Shown: positions 3,370-17,257, numbered from the stretch's first letter. The stretch: 20,329 nucleotides of DNA from an uncultured cyanobacterium (GCA_963807635.1 CAWEDJ010000045.1:1-20329); one strand, 5' to 3'. Program-made: numbers and translations. The notes: generated by a model from the letters alone, not told the origin.

Positions 3370-4761
3370 GAGAAATGGACGTAGCCATTAAACCAAGGGG
3401 AAAAGTCAACGTAAAAGTCATTAAACAATAGTCAACATCCTCTGTGGGGTCACAGGTCACTGCTATCCTACCATCAAGCTGTTCCACTAATTCCTTGATA
3501 ATACAAAGACCTAATCCTATCCCCGCGATCGCATTATCAATGACCCACTGCTCTCGGTAGAAAGGATCAAAGAAATAGGCTAGATTTTTAGAGTCAATCG
3601 AAGGCGTTAGATTGCTCAATTGCAGAAGAATAACTGGCCTCCCTTTCTTCTGGGTCTCCCTGATTTTTAGGGTAATATCCGTATTTTTTAAGGCAAATTT
3701 TTGGGCATTAGTGAATAATTCGTCACAAATTTGTTGTAAATAATTAATATCCGCATCAAAAAACAAAGTTTTTTTGGGTAAATCTGTCTTAACGACTATT
3801 TTTTTCGAGTATTCAGCCCACTTAATTTCATAATTTGCAACTAACCGTTGAATAAAATCAGTGAGGTTTATCTTCTGTACCTGGAGAGTCGTTTTATTAA
3901 ATTTAGAGGTTTTTAATTGGAGTATCTTTTCATTAATTTCGTTTAACTTGCGCCATTCTTGCTCTAGGATATCTAATCTTTGCTGGAGCTTTTCGGGAGA
4001 AGGGGGATTTCTCCGCAACATCTCAATCCCCATCCGAATCGTTGCTAGGGGATTTCGGGTTTGGTCACTCATAATGGTGACGATATTATGAATGAGTTGA
4101 TCATGACTAGAACGTTGTTGTTCTAACTTTTGGCGAGTGGCTTCATACCAAGCTTTGAGGATAGGACTTTCATCCGACGGCACGGCTCGGTTCAGGTTGT
4201 TGCTCTTCACCGTTTCTGTTGCGTTCTGGGGAAGAACGGGGAGGGTCTGGAAAAAATGATTCGCGATCGCCAAACTATCAGCAATCTCAACCAATTGGGT
4301 CTCTTGCAGAGAATAATCCTTTTCATCCTGGGACGAACCAACAATCACCATACCATTCACCCTGTTTTGAAACACAATACGCAACCCCAAACCCGATCGC
4401 ATCACCAGATCCTTCGTTATTTGAAAAGCTTGTCGAGAATTCGTGTTGGAGGTCAATAATAGAGGATACTCCTGATCTTGAACCGCTTTCAGCCAAGAAT
4501 GTTTCAAAACAGGAGAATTTGCTCCCAATAGAATTTTTTGCGATGGTGTTCCAGCTTACTCCCTGCAAGGACGACTCACCTACCGCACCAACCAACAAAA
4601 TGCAAATATCAACATCTAAGGACAGCCCAATCATCTCTGGCCATGGCAGGGAGCATTTGCCGGGACTCCGTATGATTGCCAATTAGGTGAATCAGGCGTT
4701 GCCCTAATAACATTTGCGAGATGGGTGGAAAAGTGAGAAAACGATTGGGAGTAATAACCAT
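3359..4761 (-). CDS. Sensor histidine kinase-like protein (GAF-like N-terminus, HisKA-like helix, HATPase_c); two apparent frameshifts near ~4640 and ~4540
   Basis: HisKA-like [20 protein letters not shown] box [10 protein letters not shown] box FFDPFYR and G2 box GIGLGL. Upstream frames (MVITPNRF..., [16 protein letters not shown]) extend the gene to an ATG at 4761; that start is inferred. Confidence 0.78.
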
Positions 4762-5304
4762 AGAATACCCAGCATTACCTAAAAGAATGACTATTAACCC
4801 TAGGCCAAGATATGCTCACGGCAATCCACGTCAGCAGCAACTATCAGAAAATGGGGCATCGGGTCAACCTAATTCCCTAATGATGAATGTTTTACCGCTC
4901 AGTTCCCAAGGGAATAATTACTGATTTTATGAAAATTAACAATTTATCAATACTGAGAATGTCATAAGTTTTTTGAAAAACCAGACTTTATTCGAGAGAC
5001 CGTTTTTGATCAGAAGACGTGATCATGGGTTTCCTAGAAAAGATTATAAATTAGTATTTTGGGTAGATTAATCACTCATAAAACCCAAAAAAGCCTGATT
5101 TAGAAGTTGAGTTAAGGCAATGAACTCAGATAATCAAGCTTTTTTCTATAAAAAGTCAAGCAGGATTGGTTCAGCGATCGCCGAGTCCTTCCAGCTAAAA
5201 ACCCTAGTGGTACTTACAACATCTTACTTAAGTAATAAGGTATGGGGAGATACCTTGGATTTTTTCTACCTAGATAGGCAAGTATCTAATTTCAAGACAG
5301 ACAA

Positions 5305-6812
5305 TTAAATCCCTATATTGACCGCAATCCGATGGCCACAGGCAAATCCTGAAAAACGCCACCGCATTTAATCCCTGCCCAGGAAACGTGCTATCTCCCA
5401 CACAATACAGCCCCGAAATCGCGGTTCGATTAAAAGGCATTCCTAATAAACCCGCTAATTTACGCTGGGGAATGGGGCCATAGGTTCCATCCTGACGACC
5501 AAGAAAACGACGGTGAGTGCGGGGAGTCCCGACTTCTTGATAATCTAAAGCCCTATCAAGTCCTGGAAAAATAACTTCTAGGCGATCGATTAACTTTTCA
5601 GCCGCCGTCTTCTTTTTTCGCTTCATAATCCTGGGGAGAAAGGTTTTGCCATTCTTCTAGCCAGCTAGGGGTAAAGGCATGGATGATGTGATGACCTGCG
5701 GGCGCGAGGTCGGGATCAAGCAGGGTCGGAATGGAAACAAAAAGCGTTCCCTGTTCCTTTTCCATATTTGCCCAATCTTCTAATAAGATATGATGACATT
5801 CGGTTCCCAGGGGTAAAACCTCGGCCTTGACTCCTAAATGTAAACTCAGAAAACTAGGGGATTTTTGGTAACGTTGTTGCCAGCGTTTTTCCTTGGTAGG
5901 CATGGCTTCGGCGGGTAATAATTTGTCAAAGGTATCCCAACGGGTCGCATTAGAAACAATCCGTTTAGCGAAATATTGCTCTCCATTCGTCAATTCCACC
6001 CCAATCGCCTTCCCTTTTTCCAACAAAATTTGCTGAACTTTGGATTTATAGCGAATCTCGCCCCCTTTTTTTTCTAAACCTTCCACTAATTTTTGGGCAA
6101 TTTGACCCACGCCGCCCTTGGGATAATTGATGCCTCCATAATGGCGATCAGAGAAAACCATCCCCGCATTAATCATCGGCGTTAGATCCGCAGGAACCAC
6201 TGACCAACAGTAGCATTCCATGTCAATAAACTTGAGTAATTCAGGATCTTGGATATAACGTCGGGCAATATCCCCCGCATTTTGGGGTAAATATTTGACT
6301 AACCCTAAACAGGCTCCAGGATGTTGGAAGAAAACCCGCATCAAATAACCCAATTCTTCCAGGGACAATAACTCCATTGCATTGAGGCAATTAAACACTT
6401 GCCAACATTCATCATAAAAACGACGAATTCCCACCTTCTCTTGGGGAAAACGGGTAATTAATTCCTGCAAAAACTTTTCATAATCTCGATGAACTTTAAT
6501 CTCTAGATCCTGGGGTAAATGGTAATGAATCTGCACAGGATCGGGTAGGGTTTCTAGTTCCATGTCCACCGCAGCCAAGGCACGGGTCAATAAATTGGTC
6601 GTTCCCTTTTCCCCAAAACCAAAAATCATCGAAGCTCCCACATCAAAGTGATAGCCTTCCCGTTCAAAATAGCCCGAACTTCCCCCAGGAATGAGATAGC
6701 TTTCTAAAATAAGAACCTTTGCACCTTTGGCCGCCAGTTGAGTCGCGGTGACTAATCCCCCAATACCCGAACCGATCACAATGACATCGTAGTTTGGCTT
6801 GTTGACCATCAC
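5305..6812 (-). CDS. crtH: Carotenoid cis-trans isomerase CrtH (prolycopene isomerase); two apparent +1 frameshifts (~5612, ~5354)
   Basis: FAD-binding [50 protein letters not shown] and [16 protein letters not shown]. The frame-corrected end reads [15 protein letters not shown] with its stop at 5305. Confidence 0.92.
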
Positions 6813-6986: not shown

Positions 6987-8080
6987 ATGAACGCAACAAA
7001 CGACATTTTAATTATTGGGGGCGGGATTATTGGCTGGCGATCGCCGTTGAATTGAGACAAAGGGGTGCGAGCGTTACCGTACTAAGTCGAGATTTTCAGG
7101 AAGCGGCCAGTCATGCGGCGGCGGGAATGTTGGCTCCCTACGCTGAACAAATTCCTGCTGGCTCCATGCTAGAACTGTGTACGCGATCGCGGCAAATGTA
7201 TGCAGATTGGACGGGCAAACTAGAAAATTTAACAGGATTAGCAACGGGTTATAACCCCTGCGGTATTTTGTCGCCCGTCTTTGAACTGCCCGATAATCCT
7301 ACCCCCCTTGCCCCCACTTCAAGCTGGCTGAATCAAACCGAAATCCATGCCTTTCAACCAGGCTTAAATCCCGACATTCTCGGCGGATGGTGGCATCCCG
7401 AAGATGGCCAGGTTGATAATCAAAAATTAGTCCATACCCTACGGCAAGGGGCGAAAATCTTAGGCGTAAATCTCCAAGGAAGGGGCGGTAGTTCAATCTA
7501 TTATTCAAAAATCAGGTAAAATTGACAAGATTTTAACCCAAAATCAAGACTATCAAGCTCAAACCTATGTTTTAGCCACAGGTTCCTGGTCATCTGAATT
7601 AATGCCCCTACCAGTCCGCCCTGTCAAGGGTCAAATGTTAGCCCTACGAATGCCCACTCCCCAAAGCTTGGAACGAGTCCTATTTGGCCGAATACCTATC
7701 TAGTCCCCCGAAAAAATGGCCGTCTCATTATCGGCGCAACCTCAGAAGAAGTCGGTTGGACTCCCCACAATACACCCCAGGGAATTAACGCTCTCTTGCA
7801 AAGGGCAATGGGACTGTACTTGCCGATCGCAGATTGGACGATTGAAGATTTTTGGTGGGGATTTCGGCCAGGCACAACGGATGAATTCCCCATTTTAGTG
7901 CCGAGTGGCTATGATAATCTAGTTTTGGCGACGGGTCATTATCGCAATGGTATTTTATTAGCTCCCATTACCGCGACCCTCATTGCGGATCTGATTACCC
8001 ATCAAGTGACCGATCCTTTGTTAACCTCTTTTAACAGCGATCGCTTTTTCCAAAAATCCGACTTTTCCCCAAAATCATGA
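6987..8080 (+). CDS. thiO: Glycine oxidase ThiO (likely N-terminal domain of a ThiO-ThiG fusion); apparent frameshifts at ~7033, ~7478 and ~7690
   Basis: ATG at 6987 after GGAG. Motifs across the frames: [51 protein letters not shown] and [14 protein letters not shown]. Confidence 0.88.
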
Positions 8081-8921
8081 CGACTATCGGTCTTTCTTCC
8101 CCTAAAAATATTGTGAATACTGCCTCTGACGCGAACGACGATCTGATTATCGCTGGAAAGAAATTTCAATCTCGGTTGCTGACGGGTACGGGTAAATATC
8201 CCTCGATCGCTGTGATGCAAGACAGTATCAGCGCGAGTGGTTGTCAAATTGTGACCGTTGCCGTCCGTCGAGTCCAGACCAACGCTCCTGGCCATGAAGG
8301 ATTAGCAGAGGCGATCGCCTGGTCAAAAATCTGGATGTTACCCAACACCGCAGGCTGTCAAACCGCAGAAGAAGCCATTCGGGTCGCCCGTTTAGGCCGA
8401 GAAATGGCCAAATTATTAGGACAAGAAGATAATAATTTCGTCAAATTAGAAGTGATTCCCGATAGTAAATATCTGTTACCCGACCCCATCGGAACCCTAG
8501 AGGCGGCTGAAAAATTGGTTAAAGAAGGATTTGCCGTACTGCCCTATATCAACGCCGATCCGCTTTTAGCCAAACGCCTAGAAGAAGTCGGTTGTGTGAC
8601 CGTTATGCCCCTGGGTCTCCCATCGGTTCGGGTCAAGGAATTCGCAATGCGGCTAATATCGGCATTATTATCGAAGAAGCGAAGGTTCCCGTCGTGGTGG
8701 ATGCAGGGATTGGGACTCCGAGTGAAGCCGCTCAAGCAATGGAAATGGGAGCCGATGCAGTTTTAATTAATAGCGCGATCGCCTTAGCCCATAATCCTGT
8801 CGCCATGGCCCAGGCTATGGGAATGGCCGCGATCGCAGGACGTTTAGCCTATCAGTCAGGTCGGATGCCGATTAAAGCCTATGCCAGTGCGAGTTCACCC
8901 TTAACAGGAATCATTAAATAA
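8077..8921 (+). CDS. thiG: Thiazole synthase ThiG; one apparent frameshift at ~8615
   Basis: [46 protein letters not shown] (after correction), VDAGIGTPS and ASASSP. Confidence 0.93.
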
Positions 8922-8943
8922 GTCAATTTCTCTTAATTTTTGT

Positions 8944-10469
8944 CAGCAATTCCAAATTCAAATGGTATAAACAAAAACAGAATGGTATTCGCATTTAGGG
9001 GTCTATGAACAAGAAGAGAAACTTTTGCTGGTTTTGTAGAGTGTGAAATGAAAGTAACCGACCTAAGTTTTGATGGAATCATGGAGTGTTTAAACGAGGT
9101 TATCGCAAAAATAGATGACCCGCGCTCAGCGAGTAACGCAACGAAATATAGTCTAAGAGAGGCGATATTGGGTGCATTTGCCGCCTTTTTTACGCAAAAT
9201 GAGTCATTTTTAGAGTACCAACGTCAACTCAACAGTCGTTGTGGGCGAGATAATGCTCAAAGTTTGTTTGGACTAAACAAAATACCGACAGTAGAGCAGA
9301 TTCGTAATATTGTGGATGGGATAACAGCGAGCAGTCTATTCCCATTGTTTGGGTTGATTTACCAAGCATTGAGAAACATGGGATTCCTAAAATCTTATGA
9401 GATATTGGGGGGAAATCTATTAGTGGCGATGGATGGAACAAATTATCACAGTTCAGGGAAAGTCAATTGTCCATGCTGTTCAACCAAAACGTCAAAACAG
9501 GGAAAAGTCACCTACTTTCATCAAGCATTATTACCAGTGATTGTTTCCCCAGACCATGAATCAGTTTTCTCCTTAGCTCCTGAATTTATCACTCCTCAAG
9601 ACGGGTCGGAAAAACAGGATTGCGAGCAAAATGCGGCAAAACGCTGGATAAGTAATCATGCCAGTTTGTTTGCATGGCAGAAGATAACGCTACTAGGGGA
9701 TGACTTGTTCAGTCGTCAGCCGACTTGTCAGCATAGTCTAGACCACGACTTCAACTTTATCTTCGTCTGTTTGCCGACTTCTCATCCCACACTTTATGAG
9801 TGGTTAGCCTATTTAGAAGCCAACGGGGAACTCAAAACTACTCAACACCGACGCTGGAATGGGAAGTATTTTGAGATTTGGCAATGTCGTTATCTCAATC
9901 AAATCCCCCTGCGAGAGCAACAGCCTGCTTTGTTGGTTAACTGGTGTGAACTAAAAGTCTACCGCGAATCCGATGCTCAACTCCTCCATCACAATAGTTG
10001 GATTACCAACCATTTTCTCACCCCTCAAGTCGTTCTTGATGTCTGTCGTGCTGGACGGACTCGTTGGCGCACGGAGAATGAGAATCACAATATTCTCAAA
10101 AATCGGGGCTATCATTTAGAACATAATTTTGGGCATGGAAAACAACACCTTGCCTCCGTTTTGCTCACTCTCAATCTACTGGCTTTTCTCTTCCACACGG
10201 TTTTGGGTTTGGTTGATGAACGTTACCAGAGGATTCGCGTCCAACGCTGTACTCGTAAGGGATTCTTCCAAGACTTTCTTTCTTTAACCAAATATTTACT
10301 CTTTGAAAGCTGGCATCATCTTTTAGATTTTATGCTTGATGACCCCCTTTCTCCTGCTGCTTCCAATTCTTCTTAATTTCTTACTTGGAAATCTTCAAGG
10401 TAAAACCCTTGCCAGTAAAAAGCTTGAGTTTTTTTTGTCTTTAGCTACATTCTGAATTTGGAATTGCTG
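8944..10469 (+). mobile_element. ISNCY-type (ISAs1/H-repeat-like DDE) insertion sequence, complete, with 9-bp target site duplication
   Basis: Perfect 17-bp inverted repeats cagcaattccaaattca (8944-8960) and tgaatttggaattgctg (10453-10469). Direct repeat aatttttgt at 8935-8943 and 10470-10478. Confidence 0.93.
9048..10376 (+). CDS. DDE transposase (ISNCY family)
   Basis: Intact 442-aa ORF with DPR...KYS, VAMDGT, CPCC, KQDCEQNAAKRW, LLGDDLF and RWRTENENHNILKNRGYHLEHNFGHG. Confidence 0.88.
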   Translation: MKVTDLSFDGIMECLNEVIAKIDDPRSASNATKYSLREAILGAFAAFFTQNESFLEYQRQLNSRCGRDNAQSLFGLNKIPTVEQIRNIVDGITASSLFPLFGLIYQALRNMGFLKSYEILGGNLLVAMDGTNYHSSGKVNCPCCSTKTSKQGKVTYFHQALLPVIVSPDHESVFSLAPEFITPQDGSEKQDCEQNAAKRWISNHASLFAWQKITLLGDDLFSRQPTCQHSLDHDFNFIFVCLPTSHPTLYEWLAYLEANGELKTTQHRRWNGKYFEIWQCRYLNQIPLREQQPALLVNWCELKVYRESDAQLLHHNSWITNHFLTPQVVLDVCRAGRTRWRTENENHNILKNRGYHLEHNFGHGKQHLASVLLTLNLLAFLFHTVLGLVDERYQRIRVQRCTRKGFFQDFLSLTKYLLFESWHHLLDFMLDDPLSPAASNSS

Positions 10470-10549
10470 AATTTTTGTCGGGCTATTTTGTGATGGGCGT
10501 CTTGTTGATTGGCTAGGGCTAACCAAAATCCTGTATCAGTGATGATCAT
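10470..10549 (-). pseudogene. vapC: VapC/PIN toxin, N-terminal remnant interrupted by the IS
   Basis: MIITDTGFWLALANQQDAHHKIARQK is a typical PIN start. Its ATG at 10549 overlaps the upstream antitoxin stop, and the frame runs into the IS right end. Confidence 0.8.
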
Positions 10550-10802
10550 ACTTAGCCTCAAGTTCATCTGCAAGCACTTGTTTGTAGTTGATAGATAAGT
10601 CACTTTCGACTGAGCAACATCCAATAAAGCCTGATTCTTCCAGAATATCAAAGGGTGTTTTGTGTTGTTGATGTTTGAGTTTTTGATAATAGGAGTCTAT
10701 GGCATCTTGCAAAATTTCAGAGATAGCCTGATTAGTCTGTTGTTGAATATAGATGAGTTTATCTGTGGTTGCTGAGTCGATTTGGGTGTTAATTTGTGAC
10801 AT
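10536..10802 (-). CDS. Putative CopG/RHH-type antitoxin (partner of VapC)
   Basis: 88-aa ORF with SD-like GAGGT upstream, SEILQDAIDSYY and SGFIGC...DLSINYK, overlapping the PIN start. Confidence 0.75.
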   Translation of the reverse strand: MSQINTQIDSATTDKLIYIQQQTNQAISEILQDAIDSYYQKLKHQQHKTPFDILEESGFIGCCSVESDLSINYKQVLADELEAKYDHH

Positions 10803-10817
10803 TAATTTTACCTCTTA

Positions 10818-10986
10818 TTAATTTATTGTAATTGCATTATATTCTTGTTCGGTTAGTTCAAATTCTGGGTCGATTATTTTTATTTCTTCATAGTGAGGTT
10901 ATAAAGTTTGTAAACTAGTTGATTGATTTCTTTTTCTAAAGTGGTTGTATCAGCTTTTGGATCGGATTTTTTAGCAATGATAATTT
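10818..10986 (-). repeat. Copy (A') of the 3' end of the Type IIG RM gene
   Basis: About 90% identical by eye to 13236-13385. Encodes IIIAKKSDPKADTTTLEKEINQLVYKLYNLT-EEIKIIDPEFELTEQEYNAITIN*. Confidence 0.92.
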
Positions 10987-11005
10987 TCAGCTCGTCTTTT
11001 TAAAT

Positions 11006-11314
11006 TTACGATTGAGTCATTGCATTTAATGCCGTATTAATAATTTCTTCACTAACTCCCTGACATTTTAAATTTTCGATAAATACAGAAATTCCTTGAT
11101 TACGACTTTCTAAATAATATAAAATCGCGGCGATAGGAGATGGTGGTTCAATCGGATAGTTGTCTTTTTCATAAGCTTCTACCAAAGTTATTAAAATGTC
11201 TAATTTTTCTAATTCCTCTAATTCCTCTGTATTATTTTGAGCATCAAATAATCGTTCAATTTCTTTGATTGCTAATTGATAATCTTTTTCAGTTTTAATT
11301 GGTTTTAAATTCAT
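11006..11314 (-). CDS. higA: HigA-like antitoxin (N-terminal HigA domain, no clear C-terminal HTH)
   Basis: MNLKPIKTEKDYQLAIKEIERLFDA...LDILITLVEAYEKDNYPIEPPSPIAAILYYLE. It lies directly downstream of the HigB remnant, with an AGGAG ribosome-binding site. Confidence 0.8.
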   Translation of the reverse strand: MNLKPIKTEKDYQLAIKEIERLFDAQNNTEELEELEKLDILITLVEAYEKDNYPIEPPSPIAAILYYLESRNQGISVFIENLKCQGVSEEIINTALNAMTQS

Positions 11315-11328
11315 AAAATTAAATCTCC

Positions 11329-11489
11329 TTAAACAGTTGTTGCATCTATTTTATCGTATTCTTGATGAGTCCCGATAAAGCGAATAAAAACAATACTAAT
11401 ATCGTAACGTATATGAAAATTAGACGATGATTATTCCCTTTAATGTTAAAAACTACTCGATTATTCGCAATAATACTCGCATTTGCATA
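11329..11489 (-). pseudogene. higB: HigB (RelE-like) toxin, C-terminal half only
   Basis: YANASIIANNRVVFNIKGNNHRLI, then after one frameshift HIRYDISIVFIRFIGTHQEYDKIDATTV*. The N-terminal half is absent. Confidence 0.85.
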
Positions 11490-11741
11490 GGGGATTGTTG
11501 TCGTTTCAATCCAGATTGCACGATTTTTTATCTGTTGTGCTAGGCGTATGGCTTGATTTTGGTCAATATATTTGTTTAATCGAGGTCGGTTCCATACTTC
11601 ATGGAGTTCATCTAAAAGGTTTTGGCTCATGACTAATTGGAATTTGTCTTGATTAAATGCTTCTAAGATTGGAAGTGTGATTCTACCTTTTAGCAAGATA
11701 CGAATCCAAATGTTTGTATCTATGACTACTCGAAATTCCAT
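11490..11741 (-). pseudogene. PIN-family putative toxin (PIN_3-like), C-terminally truncated and fused in frame to the HigB remnant
   Basis: MEFRVVIDTNIWI...LVMSQNLLDELHEVWNRPRL. The expected RDPxD...GDxDL C-terminal motifs are missing. Confidence 0.8.
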
Positions 11742-11743
11742 GT

Positions 11744-11965
11744 TTAGTTTCTTGATTGCTGACGTACAGCTTTAATTTCGTTCATAATCTCGGTATCTGT
11801 AATGTCATCTATAGGGGGTTGGCTATACAGTTCTTCAAGTAAGTTTGTGAGGTCTGATTTTAATTCCATGTGAATTAAAGCTTTGGCGACTTGTTCGCGA
11901 TCGCTGGGTTGTAGTTGTTGTAGGGTTGTAATCAGTTGTTCTAGGGTTATTGGTAGTTGAATCAT
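11744..11965 (-). CDS. Putative antitoxin of the PIN toxin
   Basis: 73-aa acidic ORF (ITLEQLITTLQQL...ITDTEIMNEIKAVR) ending 2 nt before the PIN start. Confidence 0.7.
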   Translation of the reverse strand: MIQLPITLEQLITTLQQLQPSDREQVAKALIHMELKSDLTNLLEELYSQPPIDDITDTEIMNEIKAVRQQSRN

Positions 11966-12003
11966 GATTGTTCACCATAATAATTTGTTGTCTGTGATTT
12001 TGT

Positions 12004-12125
12004 ATTATTTAATTTTTCTTTGTCATTTACCTCCTTCTAGTATTTTAATCTCTTCTCCTGTTAATCCATAAAGTTGATAAACTAGTTAATCTATTTCTTT
12101 TTCTAAGGCGGTTGTATCAGCATTT
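12004..12125 (-). repeat. Copy (B) of a Type IIG RM 3' tail, short variant, plus the stub of a following gene
   Basis: Encodes NADTTALEKEID*LVYQLYGLTGEEIKILEGGK*. 12004-12085 matches 12548-12629 at 76/82 nt. Confidence 0.88.
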
Positions 12126-12136
12126 AGAATACCTGT

Positions 12137-12297
12137 TTACTTGTTTCTAATTCTAAATTTATTTTGATCGACAATTACGATCGCGCCAATTATTTGTGGT
12201 AAATTAACTTGATCAATAAATTTCTCTAATGCTTGTCGAATTTCTACGGCGATCGCATCAAAGGAAAATCTCAAAATAATTAAACCGCAATGGATAT
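12137..12297 (-). pseudogene. DUF5615-like PIN toxin, C-terminal fragment
   Basis: IHCGLIILRF...IGAIVIVDQNKFRIRNK* lies immediately after DUF433, the usual partner of this family. No start codon or N-terminus is present, and it is not in the ORF track. Confidence 0.7.
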
Positions 12298-12495
12298 TTA
12301 AGAGAAGTAGGTGAGTGATGCCAAAATTTGTTCTTGAGTGACTGCATATTCTTGGATTACTTCGTCATAGGTCATGCCACCAGCGAGGGAACCGATGATT
12401 ACTGCGACGGGGATACGAGTACCTTTTAGGACGGGTTTACCATGTTGGATTTCGTTGTCGATGGTGATAGCGTCGTGTACGATGCTTTTTTTCAT
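12298..12495 (-). CDS. DUF433-family antitoxin
   Basis: ITIDNEIQHGKPVLKGTRIPVAVIIGSLAGGMTYDEVIQEY...QILASLTY. Confidence 0.88.
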   Translation of the reverse strand: MKKSIVHDAITIDNEIQHGKPVLKGTRIPVAVIIGSLAGGMTYDEVIQEYAVTQEQILASLTYFS

Positions 12496-12547
12496 AATCT
12501 AGTTCCTTATAAAAGTTGATTTTTTCAAATACTTGCATGATAATCGA

Positions 12548-12635
12548 ATTATTAAATTTTTCTTTGTCATTTATCTCCTTCTACTATTTTAATCTCTTCT
12601 TCTGTTAATCCATAAAGTGAATAAACTAGCTGATT
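12548..12635 (-). repeat. Copy (B') of a Type IIG RM 3' tail, short variant, plus the stub of a following gene
   Basis: Encodes NQLVYSLYGLTEEEIKIVEGDK*. Direct repeat of 12004-12085. Confidence 0.88.
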
Positions 12636-12638
12636 CCG

Positions 12639-13079
12639 TTACTCATCTTGTAGTTTTTCTAAATCGGCTAGATCTTGAAGTTGCCCAGAGGCTAATTTAT
12701 TTTTTTTGAGATTCTCAAGATTTATGAATTTAACAGGTACATCATTAAGGGGAATCAATTTTGGAGTCATAGCAAGTTTTAAAGTCAATGCCATCGGGGT
12801 TAGTAATTAAATCAATTCGACTGGGGGGATAACCAAGCTGAATGATTTGATTGGTGTTTGAAAGTCATCGGCTGTTAATCCTAAACTTTGAAATCCAAAT
12901 TGAGTTAATACTGTTATTAATTTTTGAACGTTTTCTTCACTTATTTCAATCCAAATGTCAATGTCTTTGGTATAGCGTGGATGTCCATGAACTGTGACAG
13001 CGTAGCCACCAATAACAAGATATTTAACTTGATTTTCGTTTAATAATTGTATAAACTCTTTGAAATCTTGGTTGAGCAT
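12639..13079 (-). CDS. Small nucleotidyltransferase (Pol-beta superfamily, DUF6036-like); apparent frameshifts
   Basis: MLNQDFKEFIQLL...YLVIGGYAV..HGHPRYTKDIDIW. The frame-corrected continuation is IIQLGYPPSRIDLI...LKKNKLASGQLQDLADLEKLQDE*. Confidence 0.8.
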
Positions 13080-13211
13080 TGTATTTATATTGGTGATATT
13101 CTTGACGGATTTGTTCGAGTGCTTTAGGCGTTTTTGAGGTGTTTGTTGTTGCCAGTATTGGAAGTCGCTAGTTTGTTGTTTGAGAGAGATTTTAGTAATA
13201 ATTTTTTCCAT
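13024..13211 (-). CDS. Small partner protein of the nucleotidyltransferase (~62 aa); one apparent frameshift at ~13124
   Basis: Corrected reading MEKIITKISLKQQTSDFQYWQQQTPQKRL(E)ALEQIRQEYHQYKYNAQPRFQRVYTIIKRKSS*, overlapping the NTase start. Confidence 0.65.
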
Positions 13212-13215
13212 GATT

Positions 13216-16200
13216 TTATTCCATTTTGATGTTTGTATATTCTTGTTCGGTTAGGTCAAATTCGGGGTCGATGATTTTTATTTCTTCATAGGTGAGGTTA
13301 TAAAGTTGATAAATTAGTTGATTGATTTCTTTTTCTAAGGTGGTTGTATCAGCTTTTGGATTGGATTTTTTAGCTGTGAGAATTTGATTAACTAATTTTT
13401 CTAATGATAATTCCTCAATTTCTGTAGCTTCTTTGATAGGCAATAGCTCAATTTTATATTTCTTCCATCTATTTGTCCCCCATTCCGTAGTAGTTGAAAT
13501 TTGGTTAAAGTACCATTCAGATAGTTTTTTTGAATTTAAAATTCCTAGCAAGTATTTAAGTTTTTCGCCAGTCATTAAGAATGCAGTAGCTTCGGGATAA
13601 TAATTAGAATCATCGAAAGTAAATTTTGGCTTGTCATAAATTTCACCCCAAACAATCTTAGGTTTTTCAAAATCTTCTAAATATGCACAATTTCTTAAAT
13701 TACTCCAATGGTTACCTTTGTCTTGTCGTTGCTCAATTTTTGGCAAAAAAGAAGTTAGATAATTATAAATATTTGGGTAATTTTCTTTGACTTTAATTCT
13801 TTCAATATTATTTTTGAAAACTCCATTATGTGTGTTAATTAAGTAAGTTTTCGAGAAATCATAGCTATATTTTTTTAAATCTCTACCCCTTAAAATTGGT
13901 TTAATTACGTCAGCAGAATTAGGATCTTGATATATTAATTCATTTTTGACTTGTTCATCTATAATAAAGAAACCTCGTTATATCCTGTCTTAATACCAAA
14001 ATTAATTGTTATTTTAAAATCTTTTAGTGGTTTACCAACAAAATCTATTTTTTGCTTTAATTTTCCAATATTTTTCATTGCCTATAATCCATTCAGATGT
14101 ATTAGGTATTAGAAATTGAAAATAATTTTCATCAAAATAATCACCTAATGAAGAGCCAATAAAATAATTATTATTTAGACTAGCAACATTGAAAAATTCA
14201 TTTGGTCTATTTTTCAAAAGTGATAATATTTGATTCTACAGTCGCTTCTTCAAAAATCTGCATATCTTCAATATTTAATAAATTCTTAGGTTGCATATTT
14301 TCAATTAAATATTTTTTCAACAAATCACCATAAATAGTTTTTAGCCAAGAATTAGAAGTAATATAAGTTAAAAATCCTTTTTTCTTAATATACAACTTCC
14401 TTTTTCGTAAAATAAGCAATAAATATCTGTACCCTTTATATAAGTTTGATAATGATTTTCAAAATAACTTTTTGAGATTGTTCTTTAATTTTAGATAGTG
14501 AAATATAAGGAGGATTTCCAATAACCACATCAAAACCAATAAAATCACCATCATCATTCAAAACTTCAGGAAACTCAAACCGCCATTCTAAAGCATTTTC
14601 ATAAATTTTACCACTTTCTATATCTTCAATTTCAACGTTTAATTTATCAATCTCATTATTCAATTGAGCTATTTTTTTCTCCCGTTTTTTTTTTTCAGCT
14701 TTACGTTTCTGGAATAATAAAATTTGATTTTTCAATGATAAAGTTCTCCTTCTAAATTTCTTAACTTAGTCTTATTTGGATCACTTTCCCAATGTAATGT
14801 AGTTTCAAATCTATTTTTAATTTCCTCAATTAATTTTTCCATTTCCTGTTTTTGTTCTTTATTTTCAGCATTGCGATAGGTTTTAACAGCATTTTCGATA
14901 ACTTTCTATACTGTATTTATCTATTATAAAGTAGCTCGCAAATCACATCTAAAGGAAACCGACTAATTAAAGAATTACCAGGTTTAATATTAATATCAAT
15001 ATTGGGTAAAGTTTCCAATTCCCGTAATTGCTGGTTCTATAATAAGCATTTTTCAAAAGTTCAATCCATAAACGCAACCGACATATTTTCACAGAATTAG
15101 GATTTATATCCACACCAAATAAACAATTTTCAATAATCGTTTGTTTTTCATGAAAGAGAGTTTCTTGTACTCGTTGACTTTCCTGGCTTTTTAGGATTAT
15201 ATTCAAATAATAAACCATCTTCATCATAGAATAATTAACTCATCATTCCCAACTTCTATCTGATAATCTTTTAATCGTCTTATCCTTCTCTATCAAGTAA
15301 AATCTTAAATTCACTTTTAATCGCAATAATTTCATTCAAAGCCGAAACTAAAAAATGTCCTGAACCCACCGCAGGATCACAAATTTTGAAACTATTAATA
15401 ATCGTATTAGCTTCTTTTTTATCTTCGTAATTTTTTCATATAAATCATCAATATTTTCACAACTCCAATCTTTAATTTCATTAAATTTTTGTACAACCGC
15501 TCTTCTAATTGTTTCCCGACACATATACATAGTAATAAAACCAGGAGTAAAGAAAGAACCATCTTTATAACCGTTAATTTTCTCAAAAATTAACCCCAGT
15601 ACAGACGCATTAATTAACTTTTTATTATCCTCTTGATTCTCTTCCGATTTTCACTACTAAAATCATAAGCCTTAAGAAATTCAAAAAATATTCTAAAGCA
15701 TTTAATTTCGCCCAATCGTTGTTTACCATTATTATCTTTAAGACCGTAGGAGAGAAAATTGGTAAATTCTCATTATTTCAAATTACTAATCTAATGTAAT
15801 CATTCTCATTTCGTTGGTTCAAATAAAGAACTATTCAAATAAGGAACATTAGCAAAATATTTTTTACAATTCGCTGTCTTTCGTTTATGTAGAGCTAATA
15901 CACTAAAAAAACAGATTATTCAAATCACCATAATTTTGAATTTTTGTAAATTCAAAAATGCATAAGCTTGATCATCTTGATGATATTTAATTAATTGAGC
16001 TTCTAATAATTTGAGAAAGAGAATTCGATTAATCCAAGTAATTGCTAATTCTAATCCAACATTAAAAACGGTTCAATTATTCTTCTCCAAAATTTTCTCT
16101 AAACTTCAATTTGCGAGATAGCATTTTCAATTAATGAACCGCTATTTCGTTCCCTTTCTTTGTTGCTGAATCAATTTTTTACCACCTTCTTTAATTTCCG

Positions 16201-17003
16201 TTAAACCGATAATATGTAATAACTCACTATAAAATCCTTTATCGAAAGTATTACTATCATTTGCAAAAGGTAACTTTAATAAATGTTCTGGTGAAAATAA
16301 TTTAAACAAATTTCTAATTTTGATTAACTCCCTTATTTTCCCCACGAACAGGGGCTTAAGCCCCTTGCCTAAATAATGCTTGATATTCTCGAATATCAAA
16401 ATGGGTAAAAATGATTTCATCTTGAATACCGTCGATAGCAGGTTTAGCAATTTCCTTATAAAAGAAATCAGTTTTTTACTACTTAATGCTTTTCTTCAAA
16501 ATCAGTAAATTGCTGAACTAGTGTTTTATTTTCTGCAAAAAATTTTCAAAAATTGAGCGTCAAAAATAAACCATTCATAAATATTAGTAGCAATTAAATA
16601 TTTAATTTCTAGATTTTTATTGTTAACGTTCTCGCAGAAAATATAAAACTAATTGTTGAAAAGCTTTAGTATTCAAATTATCAACTTTGGCAAGCATATT
16701 CGTTTTATTGTGGGCTTTTTAGCTTCTAAAATCACACCAACTGACTTTTAGCATCTTTACCATTATGAATAACAAGATCATTACGTCCCTTTAGTATTAA
16801 TAAAGTGATTTGGCTATAATATGTATTCTTTAAAAAATCAGCAATCAGATTTTTATGAAACTCCTCTGATTCAGATTCATTAATTTGGTCGATAAGCTTG
16901 CCAGATTAATTTTAAAATTCTCAAAATCTCTGAATTAGGTTTAAGTTTTAGCAAAAGCCTTATTTTTTAACGCCTCTTTTCGATATAGCCTATTGTTTTC
17001 CAT
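13216..17003 (-). CDS. Type IIG restriction endonuclease-methyltransferase (Eco57I/Cj0031-like, N6-adenine MTase, TaqI-C-like specificity domain); heavily frameshifted in this sequence
   Basis: Collinear fragments: ESEEFHKNLIADFLK, RNDLVIHNGKDAK, ILEAKKP (nuclease), FSPEHLLKLPFANDSN, FEKINGYKDGSFFTPGFITMYMCRE, motif I DPAVGSGHFL, GVDINPNSVKICRLRLWIELLK, motif IV GFDVVIGNPPY, and LRNCAYLEDFEKPKIVW...YLLGILNSK. The start at 17003 is inferred. Confidence 0.88.
16350..16365. repeat. Perfect 16-bp GC-rich palindrome (REP-like) inside the RM gene
   Basis: aggggcttaagcccct is self-complementary and sits in otherwise very AT-rich DNA. Confidence 0.7.
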
Positions 17004-17257
17004 CAAAACCTACACCTCAAAAATAATCCATAGAATTAATAATAATGGATTGTTCTAAACTTTACACAGAAATGCTCCACAGAATCCAAAATCTCATTTT
17101 CCTTAAATTTTTCTTAAAATAGAGGGCTAAGTAATAAATCTTTGTTAACCTGAAACCCAAAGAATAACCCAAGTCACTGTTAAAATCGACAAAGACGCGA
17201 TGCAAAAAACATCCCTCGCGATCGCCAATAATTCTTAGTACCGCCATAAACACTCCT

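Follow-up and report, generated by a model that had tools for sequence, protein, structure and literature searches.

The 3' tail of a Type IIG restriction-modification (RM) gene was found as repeated, co-oriented copies between toxin-antitoxin (TA) cassettes in an uncultured cyanobacterium, with four copies (A, B', B and A') separating four TA cassettes in the window, i.e. the whole analysed stretch of 20,329 nt. This architecture recurs in other genomes, the cassettes are shuffled between genomes, the breakpoints of cassette indels lie inside tails, and mosaic tails occur. The same layout with different cassettes is present in many bacteria, and the tail therefore looks like a shared recombination joint for the gain and loss of defence genes. 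From these sequence comparisons the tail is proposed to be a homology anchor for the insertion, deletion and exchange of cassettes, with a probability of roughly 0.6.

Tail copies and cassettes in the window

The tail is the final conserved stretch (last ~20-60 codons) of Eco57I-type Type IIG genes, with the motif ...ADT..LE..I..LVY.LYGLT.EEI.I..., and is bordered by the hypervariable specificity domain upstream and by unrelated DNA downstream. A tail profile built from five intact tails found all four window copies, with per-genome E-values from 3e-28 to 5e-11. The features are as follows.

8943 to 10470, plus strand: IS element (1527 bp), with a DDE transposase ORF at 9048-10376 and a weak DDE_Tnp_1_assoc match
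10471 to 10802, minus strand: cassette 5, 88-aa antitoxin-like gene and VapC/PIN stub (intact pair in G002)
10806 to 10987, minus strand: tail A', an orphan A-type copy lacking 1 nt (profile 55.1 bits)
11006 to 11965, minus strand: cassettes 3 and 4, fused (Pfam and NCBIfam)
12004 to 12153, minus strand: tail B, an orphan B-type copy interrupted by an in-frame TAA (profile 58.3 bits)
12137 to 12495, minus strand: cassette 2, DUF433 and DUF5615/PIN-like toxin fragment (Pfam DUF433, E 5e-19)
12548 to 12638, minus strand: tail B', orphan, B type, 5'-truncated (profile 36.6 bits)
12639 to 13211, minus strand: cassette 1, small partner protein and DUF6036-type nucleotidyltransferase (NTase; weak Pfam NTP_transf_5/DUF6036)
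13204 to 13386, minus strand: tail A, of A type, which forms the 3' end of the RM gene itself (profile 90.9 bits)
13216 to 17006, minus strand: Eco57I-type Type IIG RM pseudogene (TaqI_C by Pfam, E 4.6e-14)

Tail A ends with LYNLTYEEIKIIDPEFDLTEQEYTNIKME (stop), and tail B' reads from its start QLVYSLYGLTEEEIKIVEGDK (stop). The minus-strand order is tail A, small protein and DUF6036-type NTase, B', DUF433 and DUF5615 fragment, B, VapB15-like antitoxin, PIN_3/HigB chimera and HigA-like gene, A', and RHH-like 88-aa gene and vapC stub; all tails and cassettes lie tightly packed on this strand, in the order of the original prediction. The tails were compared by repeat search and by blastn against the whole 4.03-Mb assembly. 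Identity was 92.0% over 150 nt for A (13204-13400) and A' (10806-11000), 92.7% over 82 nt for B and B' (exactly the 76/82 positions predicted) and 88.5% over 61 nt for A and B, and the rest of the assembly gave only weak tail DNA matches (74-79%, on C98, C93 and C88). All four predicted copies were recovered, and the predicted borders were too narrow for B (extending to 12153) and A' (starting at 10806).

The RM gene is open in one frame only over its last 176 codons (13216-13746), which hold the TaqI_C domain and the tail. With the intact RM of G004 as tblastn query, its pieces were placed in frames -3/-2/-1/-3/-2/-1/-3, corresponding to at least six frame changes relative to that protein, and its translation is full of stops. 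The intact syntenic relative carries the predicted domains DUF7149, DUF7814, Eco57I, N6_Mtase and TaqI_C, of which only TaqI_C is in frame in the window copy; sequence search found no solved homologue of the C-terminal 250 aa.

The cassettes are damaged as well. Cassette 1 has at least two frameshifts (ORFs 12807-13211 and 12639-12794), with extra bases at 13124 and 12754 in contigs of relatives and an intact form in G014 (73 aa and 146 aa). Cassette 2 consists of DUF433 (12298-12495, 65 aa) and the last 45 aa only of DUF5615 (12137-12274), as against 80 and 121 aa in the intact pair of G001, and at 12292-12302 the window has 9 letters where relatives' contigs have 255. Cassettes 3 and 4 comprise a VapB15-like antitoxin (11744-11965, NCBIfam VapB15), a chimera of a PIN_3 N-part and a HigB C-part (11346-11741, junction near 11489; Pfam PIN_3 at residues 4-71 and HigB_toxin at 85-110) and a HigA-like antitoxin (11006-11314). 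They appear to be joined by deletion: G004 has an intact HigB (97 aa) with HigA, and contig joints at 11489/11490 in relatives provide each of the two cassettes with its own tail. Cassette 5 retains the 88-aa gene (10536-10802), with no family match in Pfam or NCBIfam, and the first 25 VapC/PIN codons (10471-10546), the intact pair in G002 being 88 aa and a 141-aa PIN protein. The array is cut off by the IS element, at which the vapC stub ends (10471) and which abuts the end of thiG; seven further copies in the assembly are at least 99.9% identical and have the same ends. The adjacency to thiG in this genome looks like a by-product of the IS insertion rather than a conserved anchor. All five window toxin genes are inactivated (truncated or fused) and three antitoxins are intact. 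With its RM pseudogene, broken toxins and IS-cut end, the window array is a decayed relic and not an active system.

Mis-assembly, named as a risk with the original prediction, is unlikely, because the copies differ by 8-30% and junctions recur in independent assemblies (HigA/tail A' of G004 in L013, 12036-12213; DUF5615/tail in L014). Pseudogenes and IS copies abound in the genome and G002 has an internal RM deletion, as would suit unrelated relics of tandem complete RM genes, deleted independently, or an assembly artefact. This explanation is disfavoured and hardly credible: each deletion would have to remove everything from the previous cassette's stop codon to the tail, the arrangement is repeated in independent assemblies and phyla, the cassette indels fall in tails, and the tails are too diverged for an assembler to collapse or duplicate them.

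Cassette variation among relatives

Cassettes varying in number and order between tails, together with different specificity domains, had been predicted and were found in G004, G001 and G014/G103. In the syntenic region of G004, an intact RM of 1215 aa with another TRD is followed by a B-type tail, RHH/PIN, HigBA and the same orphan tail A'; in G001 the order after the RM is A-type tail, RHH/vapC stub, DUF433/DUF5615, second tail and RelN-type antitoxin. G014 is arranged as RM, t1, a cassette of a 102-aa protein and Shedu SduA_C, t2 and NTase, and G103 as RM, one tail and NTase, so that the two differ by the presence or absence of the Shedu cassette and one tail. Both t1 and t2 align to the single G103 tail, as direct repeats of >30 bp flanking the insert, and the breakpoint is inside the tail, the 5' end of the G103 tail matching t1 and its 3' end t2. 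Tails directly joined where the window has cassettes were present in assembled metagenome contigs of relatives; none of the sequencing runs contained the window strain itself, the best one having 21% of its sampled words.

In genus g11 the RM tail is followed directly by an 897-aa gene in four species, and cassettes plus a second tail lie between them in two. On the left, the break falls within the tail core; on the right, the filled site is joined outside any tail, and the duplicated unit continues for 26 nt after the stop codon, taking in the opening codons of the next gene. Target duplication or a one-sided illegitimate join would account for these right-hand features no less well than the proposed anchor. 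L115 provides only a partial single-copy empty site for L124 (tail1/tail2), as its tail there is of another type.

In a target-duplication reading, a cassette is inserted just after the RM stop codon and a long, variable stretch (60-400 nt) is duplicated by break-and-repair, which makes the tails insertion footprints and not recombination substrates. The repeats flanking the G014 Shedu cassette differ at 3 positions in ~85 nt with one copy at the G103 empty site, the duplicated unit of L124 likewise reaches beyond the stop codon to the opening codons of the following gene, and pieces of the TRD are present on some distal copies (L070, L128). There is also precedent in the insertions of RM units described by Furuta, Abe and Kobayashi (2010, PMC2853133), which lack mobility genes and have repeats of 24-423 bp; they include cases that span a stop codon, cases with an RM gene as target and one case in Microcystis. 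This explanation is nevertheless considered unlikely, since it does not account for many different cassettes in many phyla independently hitting the same RM tail, for mosaic tails or for a tail-NTase-tail module 93% identical in a distant genome, and the nested order A[B'..B]A' would need a whole composite block to be inserted at once.

A mosaic is given by window tail B and the second tail of G001, which share the DUF5615/tail junction and have 3' halves of different types. The same cassettes were also found in different tail contexts: the NTase cassette in G000, G004:C231, G014/G103, genus g11 and G386, DUF433/DUF5615 in G000, G001 and contigs of runs X2/X3, RHH/VapC in G000, G001 and G002, and HigBA and VapB/PIN_3 likewise. 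The module of G386, a member of another family, consists of tail A, an NTase remnant and tail B'; its NTase part is 93% and its RM body 72% identical to the window, which points to horizontal movement. The TA cassettes of relatives pair a small antitoxin gene with a neighbouring toxin gene from established families, as in type II TA systems, and include PIN, HigB, HicA/HicB, PemK, RelE, HEPN/MNT, DUF433/DUF5615, DUF4160/DUF2442, PhdYeFM, RelN and VapB15.

Recurrence and proposed mechanism

A search of 89 same-family genomes matched the tail 116 times; 47 of the matches fell in short open frames (<=100 aa) and 50 in long ones (>=900 aa), and many of the short-frame matches stood in series, 0.6-1.3 kb apart, often with TA/defence cassettes between them. 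For the window and 19 of 20 fetched loci, 42 tails were counted (13 RM-attached and 29 orphan), co-oriented within each locus; the orphan tails were followed by a TA/defence cassette or remnant (21), by an unrelated gene at the array end (6) or by the contig end (2). Extra tails were carried by 17/79 loci from many phyla, 20 of these tails being co-oriented and 3 inverted. Tails are not a general TA feature; in G000, 6/28 places matching 11 cassette proteins were within 1.5 kb of a tail. Adjacent tails without cargo between them occur at L032, L061, L075 and L083 and are not predicted by simple tail-to-tail exchange; L075 has a repeat unit with a REP-like palindrome, next to a Y1-transposase-like gene. 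The Treponema locus L110 looks like a phase-variable RM shufflon.

Serial replacement of RM alleles was considered quite improbable. Here, recombination in the conserved methylase part and an illegitimate join near the resident 3' end would bring in an allele with its downstream cassette, each swap changing the specificity domain and leaving the old tail behind. TRDs do differ among genus members (N-terminal 2.5 kb 69-74%, tail 84-92%), the most divergent G014/G103 tail adjoins the downstream core gene, TRD pieces are kept on the distal copy at two loci, and G002 shows that internal RM deletions occur, its RM N-fragment being joined to the final 55 nt of a tail. However, if joins were illegitimate and random, large 3' pieces of the RM gene would often be expected in the arrays, and an RM body was directly upstream of only one of the 29 orphan tails (first 20 sources), in G002; neither the arrays of 4-5 tails spaced 0.6-0.8 kb (L021, L022) nor the clean tail-to-tail indel of G014/G103 can be explained in this manner.

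Pfam searches of the window (ORFs of >=70 aa and cassette ORFs) found two DDE transposases and no integrase or recombinase, a scan of the cassette genes at cyanobacterial loci likewise gave no recombinase, and all tail strands (8/8) folded no better than shuffled sequence (z 0.00 to +1.18). The predicted lack of an integrase and of attC-like sites is thereby borne out, and the term integron-like array holds for the topology and fails for attC-like folding and integrase. The window has direct repeats only and no recombinase, in place of the inverted specificity-gene copies and recombinase of a shufflon; its 16 inverted pairs are short (71-86% complementary) and consistent with chance.

A recombinase encoded elsewhere and acting in trans on a core site of the tail, in a true integron-like system, would agree with three boundable crossover intervals within ~25 nt around the ...I(D)xLVY codons, with small, co-oriented and promoter-less cassettes like those of integrons, and with Y1 transposase genes (L083, L087, L080) or a resolvase (L110) between tails in other phyla. 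It is rated as very improbable: no such enzyme was found in or beside the cyanobacterial arrays examined, the tails showed no hairpin potential, and the crossover clustering is expected anyway because this is the only stretch common to tails of different types.

As homology anchors, the tail copies would act as portable homology. A cassette between two tails could be deleted by tail-tail recombination, excised as a cassette-plus-one-tail unit and inserted beside any similar enough RM gene or orphan tail, with the RM reading frame unbroken. Repeated events would stack cassettes, and each tail would become a hybrid, its 5' part moving with the upstream cassette and its 3' part with the downstream one. 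The originally predicted role of the tail as a recombination handle is supported by the cassette shuffling, the tail-internal breakpoints and the relatives' tail joints. We infer the recombination pathway, any circular intermediate and the origin of the first tail duplication; host homologous recombination is the likeliest pathway, and it may follow DNA uptake or take place between copies of the genome. The tail homology, of about 57-180 nt and 8-30% diverged, is a poor substrate for RecA-type exchange, which counts against a homology anchor; nor does such an anchor account for the first tail duplication. Codon identity at identical residues was 0.67 in the tail vs 0.49-0.84 elsewhere in the RM gene; being no higher than elsewhere, it gives no sign of DNA-level homogenisation, and the higher DNA identity of the tail is due to protein conservation.

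The wider proposal, that the conserved tail is a general docking and exchange site operating without a recombinase within and between species, is put forward tentatively, at somewhat below even odds; any cassette with tails on both sides would become mobilisable by host recombination into similar RM genes. If true, this would be a concrete way in which RM genes seed defence islands and let them grow, not only in cyanobacteria but also in Bacteroidota, Chloroflexota, Planctomycetota and other groups.

Comparison with known systems

Full-text literature searches found no description of tail-separated cassette arrays, in agreement with the original view that the arrangement is apparently undescribed. 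Defence islands and insertion with long target duplication are already known, and the tail-cassette array is a variant of these. Orphan cdiA-CT/cdiI and rhs-CT/immunity modules form toxin/immunity arrays downstream of a large gene, each after a conserved coding fragment through which the module can recombine with the main gene; a new toxic C-terminus follows the fragment, so that protein function is changed. The present arrays similarly have toxin pairs downstream of a large gene, separated by conserved fragments of that gene, but the fragment is the extreme C-terminus and recombination would change only which independent cassettes follow.

In the long target duplications described in PMC2853133, direct repeats flank a defence insert with no transposase or integrase and with one copy at the empty site, the repeats may span the stop codon with the target gene left intact, and RM genes can be the target, all as here. 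The inserted unit in those cases is an RM system, in a single event per different target, whereas in the present arrays it is the RM gene that is hit repeatedly, the inserted units are TA pairs, a Shedu nuclease and other small defence-type genes, serial events form arrays, and repeats are re-used for exchange (mosaic tails, shared modules).

The partial RM specificity segments and TA pair within an RM locus, with excision and reintegration at repeats, of the pneumococcal tvr shufflon (as described in PMC6265443) are comparable. Shufflons of that type have inverted or direct hsdS repeats, a dedicated recombinase and a specificity change, unlike the window with its direct repeats only and neither recombinase nor TRD copies. 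Sedentary chromosomal integron arrays, as presented in bioRxiv 10.1101/2024.07.02.601686, resemble the tail arrays in their co-oriented, mostly promoter-less small cassettes, repeated junction element, content varying between relatives, and TA and defence cargo; the present arrays have no IntI and no attC, and their junctions are coding-derived and non-folding, from the 3' end of a neighbouring gene. TRD movement by homologous recombination at conserved motif-coding sequences (Furuta and Kobayashi 2012, PMC3467074) likewise uses short conserved methyltransferase coding stretches as homology arms between non-orthologous loci; as described there, the TRD is exchanged inside the gene, whereas here whole cassettes would be exchanged outside it and spare copies of the arm left behind.

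Tail copies in the window

Copies of the conserved 3' end (tail) of the Eco57I-type Type IIG restriction-modification (RM) gene were located by repeat search and by blastn against the entire assembly (4.03 Mb, 107 contigs). The four tails of the window are all minus-strand features, and every one of them spans the gap from the stop codon of one cassette to the start of the next.

13204-13386, minus strand, tail A, the RM gene's own
12548-12638, minus strand, tail B', orphan
12004-12153, minus strand, tail B, orphan
10806-10987, minus strand, tail A', orphan

The original prediction had put A and A' at about 90% identity and B and B' at 76 of 82 matching nucleotides, and both estimates held: A (13204-13400) and A' (10806-11000) were 92.0% identical over 150 nt, and B (12004-12160) and B' (12548-12680) 92.7% identical over 82 nt; A and B were 88.5% identical over 61 nt. 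Outside the window, only weak DNA matches to the tails were found by blastn in the rest of the assembly. The tail repeats of the window are real and fall into two types, the A type (A and A') ending in ...LYNLTYEEIKIIDPEF(D/E)LTEQEY..I.. and the B type (B and B') ending in ...LYGLT(E/G)EEIKI(V/L)EG.K, each followed by the stop codon. About 20 nt past the stop codon are also common to B and B'. An in-frame TAA interrupts tail B, and one nucleotide is deleted in tail A'.

As predicted, neither an integrase nor an attC-like site was found in the window: ORF scans gave no integrase, and all eight tail strands folded no better than shuffled sequences (z from 0.00 to +1.18). The tail as a promoter of the downstream cassette was not supported by the consensus scan (19 sites vs 15.6 ± 4.1 in shuffles), in which three promoter-like minus-strand sites touched tails (12026-11997, 10832-10805 and 11004-10977). 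Tails as a general feature of toxin-antitoxin (TA) loci were rejected, as only 6 of the 28 places matching 11 cassette proteins in the window's genome lay within 1.5 kb of a tail. DNA-level homogenisation of the tails was not detected: codon identity at identical residues was 0.67 in the tail vs 0.49-0.84 elsewhere, in a data set dominated by one genus. Amino-acid identity was 0.65-0.72 in the tail vs 0.16-0.36 in most of the preceding specificity domain (TRD), and since synonymous-site identity was not raised, the higher DNA identity of the tail is attributed to conservation of the protein. No solved structure was matched by sequence for the TRD together with the tail.

Recurrence of tails and their cargo

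A tail profile built from five intact tails was used in the surveys of the family, the phylum and one genome per species, respectively. Among the 89 genomes of the family, 116 tail matches were found in 42 genomes, with reading frames of ≤100 aa at 47 matches, ≥900 aa at 50 and in between at 19. A total of 42 tails (13 RM-attached and 29 orphan) was counted in the window plus 19 of the 20 loci fetched; they were co-oriented within every locus, and series of four and five tails were present (L021 and L022, respectively). According to our reading of the profile, ORF and family-scan results, the 29 orphan tails were followed by a TA/defence cassette or remnant (21), by an unrelated gene at the array end (6) or by the contig end (2). 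The families behind the 21 were PIN with antitoxin, HigBA, HicAB, PemK, RelE, MNT/HEPN and DUF433/DUF5615, and further DUF4160/DUF2442, DUF6883/DUF4926, NTase and one Shedu SduA_C nuclease.

Tail matches were present in 71 of the 401 genomes of the phylum survey, and arrays occurred outside the family too. In a genome of another family (G386, contig C8, about 3980-6760), the order was RM fragment, tail, PIN pair, tail, NTase remnant, tail, TA pair and tail, of which tail A, NTase remnant and tail B' repeat the window's order. Identity to the window DNA was 93% in the NTase part vs 72% in the RM body/fragment, which speaks for the horizontal transfer of a tail-cassette-tail module; the PIN cassette was 87% identical to that of genus g11, another cyanobacterial genus with tails. 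These identities suggest a recent lateral transfer of the module, or possibly a binning error. Elsewhere (G224, contig C4, 2200-9040), the same gene set (104/115, 281/348 and 290/263 aa) stood behind each of two full-score tails 5.7 kb apart, and this locus is a tandem duplication of the whole block of RM gene plus neighbours.

When each species was represented by a single genome, the 80 best matches corresponded to 79 distinct loci, and extra tails (20 co-oriented and 3 inverted) were found in 17 of the 79, one of which duplicates a locus already counted; the fraction is a lower bound because many loci are cut by contig ends. The 17 loci include Bacteroidota, Chloroflexota, a Kuenenia MAG, Kiritimatiellia and a Treponema MAG. 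Their cargo was larger and comprised IS200-like Y1 transposase genes in three or four loci, DUF3800, AAA_14/DUF4143, an HNH protein, a polyvalent-type kinase and a 963-aa SMC_N-like protein. Single Y1 genes stood between RM tails in two Bacteroidota and one Kuenenia MAG (L083 6596-7057, L087 6250-6684 and L080 5697-5999), where they may be present by chance, as cargo or as the agent of duplication. The Treponema MAG (L110 35-4260) carried an RM fragment with tail, a serine resolvase gene and another tail; a further methylase fragment lies on the opposite strand. The layout resembles that of an invertible specificity switch and not that of a cassette array.

At least 349 proteins of 24-77 aa among public gene calls matched the tail, some of them being contig-end fragments and not orphans; where named, they were mostly 'hypothetical protein' or 'adenine-specific DNA-methyltransferase'. 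The pattern is thus hidden by annotation.

Probable exchange at the tails

For the window cassettes and tails, 41 related genomes were searched by DNA, and the matching loci were fetched and mapped. The same parts occurred in other orders, in agreement with the expectation that the order and number of TA cassettes would vary between relatives with different TRDs (other orders in G004, G001 and G002, and a different TRD in G004). G004 holds the syntenic locus, its upstream flank being 92% identical to the window. Its RM gene is intact (1215 aa, DUF7149+DUF7814+Eco57I+TaqI_C), with a TRD unlike the window's and a B-type tail, and is followed by RHH-like/PIN, intact HigB/HigA and an orphan tail whose junction with HigA is that of the window. 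Another contig of this genome (C231) carried a degenerate tail and NTase remnant adjoining an unrelated gene, without RM gene. In G001, the order was RM with A-type tail, RHH + vapC stub, intact DUF433/DUF5615, orphan tail and RelN-type antitoxin. This orphan tail shares the DUF5615/tail junction of window tail B but has a 3' half of the other type, most simply explained by a crossover within the tail. In G002, an N-terminal RM fragment fused to the last 55 nt of the tail was followed by RHH/VapC, tail, MNT/HEPN and DUF433/DUF5615.

Joints were also read from assembled contigs of four metagenomes containing relatives (88-99% alike), which represent other organisms and not this strain's reads; no sequencing run holding the window's strain was found, the best containing 21% of the sampled words. 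In these contigs, tails were joined across cassettes that the window has. The NTase cassette was absent at one joint (12611 to 13300), and an A-like tail stood directly before the RHH gene at another (10827 to 13236). Two joints (11489 to 12564 and 10974 to 11490) gave HigBA and VapB/PIN a tail each, so the PIN_3/HigB chimera of the window is explained by a deletion across a tail. The joint 12085 to 12639 was weak, its shorter side having 28 letters only.

Breakpoints were located in two further genera. G014 carries RM, tail t1, a 102-aa gene with Shedu, t2, NTase pair, t3 and a core gene, and G103 of the same genus carries RM, tail, NTase remnant, tail and core gene. The first tail of G103 aligned to t1 on its left side and to t2 on its right, with t1 variants at two 5' sites and then the t2 variant at the next; t1 and t2 differ at only three sites in about 85 nt. 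Each of the five aligned tails of these genomes starts with the cyanobacterial HIP1 octamer GCGATCGC, and partial versions were seen at the ..AID.. codons of other tails. In g11, an RM gene with B-type tail was followed directly by an 897-aa gene in four species; in two species, an RM gene with A-type tail was followed by NTase remnant, DUF2281/PIN, second tail, truncated DUF433 and the same 897-aa gene. The left breakpoint lay inside the tail core and the right one in intergenic DNA, and the duplicated unit comprised the tail through its stop codon + 26 nt, reaching the first codons of the DUF433 gene. Orphan 5' limits taken from profile coordinates were dropped, because the profile starts late on divergent types (G014 tails begin about 13 codons earlier), as was a conserved NTase/tail junction across genera, because the junctions differ.

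In the best-supported account, exchanges resolve in the tail because nothing else is common to RM alleles between the hypervariable TRD and unrelated downstream DNA. A cassette with a tail on either side would be lost through tail-tail exchange, and could move to any similar tail either as a cassette-plus-tail circle integrated by a single crossover or by unequal exchange with incoming DNA of a relative; both routes would keep the RM frame and make hybrid tails. Mosaic tails, the clean G014/G103 indel, shared modules and the arrays of n cassettes with n+1 tails (G014, G103 and contig C98 of the window's assembly) all agree with this account. Three things lie outside it: the first duplication, the right-hand junction in g11 and the cargo-less adjacent tails (L032, L061, L075 and L083). 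These fit better an insertion with long target duplication, such as Furuta et al. (2010; PMC2853133) describe for RM units, with RM genes among the targets and repeats spanning stop codons; one-sided illegitimate joining during RM allele replacement fits the same three points as well. In a Chloroflexi MAG (L075 6018-6415), the tail plus an 18-nt perfect palindrome formed 3.2 tandem copies (period 123 nt, 94% matches), beyond which lay more palindromes and a weak Y1-transposase-like gene. At least one other route of tail duplication thus exists outside cyanobacteria, and the arrangement resembles REP/RAYT-type activity at the stop codon of the RM gene.

Erosion of the window array and comparison with known systems

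The window RM translation contains stops throughout, the protein of an intact relative matches it only piecewise with at least six frame changes, and only the last 176 codons (TaqI_C + tail) are open; judged from its reading frame, the gene is dead. The whole assembly was found to lack any further RM gene of this family or a second, related one; its contig C98 has a second small array (tail, DUF4160/DUF2442, tail, unrelated gene). All toxin-side genes of the array (10471-13211) are inactivated: the NTase pair by at least two frameshifts (extra bases at 13124 and 12754 in relatives), DUF5615 by loss of its N-terminal part (9 letters vs 255 in relatives; 45 aa vs 121 aa in G001), PIN and HigB by fusion of a PIN_3 N-part to a HigB C-part, and vapC by a 1527-bp IS (8943-10470), at which it ends after 25 codons. 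Three antitoxin genes are full length.

11744-11965, VapB15-like antitoxin
11006-11314, HigA-like antitoxin
10536-10802, 88-aa antitoxin-like protein

The array is a clean example of toxin-first TA erosion with persisting antitoxins; TA erosion as such is already known (PMC13617665). The IS has seven further copies, at least 99.9% identical, in the assembly, and because it lies 21 nt from the thiG end, an IS-linked rearrangement probably removed the distal end of the array. Another DDE transposase gene, unlike that of the IS, is located at 133-1566. The thiO-like (DAO) and thiG frames (7052-8921) are split into four ORFs (7052-7519, 7796-8080, 8077-8766 and 8592-8921), reflecting either a thiazole synthesis pseudogene or assembly indel errors.

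Genes for defence form islands, in many cases around RM systems, whose accretion without integrase or transposase has so far found little explanation. In the present case, the cassette joints can be seen and identified as copies of the tail of one RM gene; such joints are recurrent in different phyla, and the gain and loss of cassettes map onto them. Island growth without mobile-element enzymes thus becomes testable, with the tail profile as a simple sequence marker for pangenomes.

In the full-text literature search, no description of RM-tail copies punctuating TA/defence cassettes was found, and Supplementary Figure 7 of PMC2853133 (Microcystis and H. pylori cases in which RM genes are the targets) might contain a related example; that the tail of one gene serves again and again as the joint in cassette arrays appears to be new. 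The parts are known, namely defence islands around RM genes, long target duplications (PMC2853133), exchange at conserved methylase motifs (PMC3467074) and TA erosion. In Microcystis MaOC1 (PMC7935541), a TA pair lies between identical 152-bp intergenic repeats, an arrangement different from joints made of RM tails.
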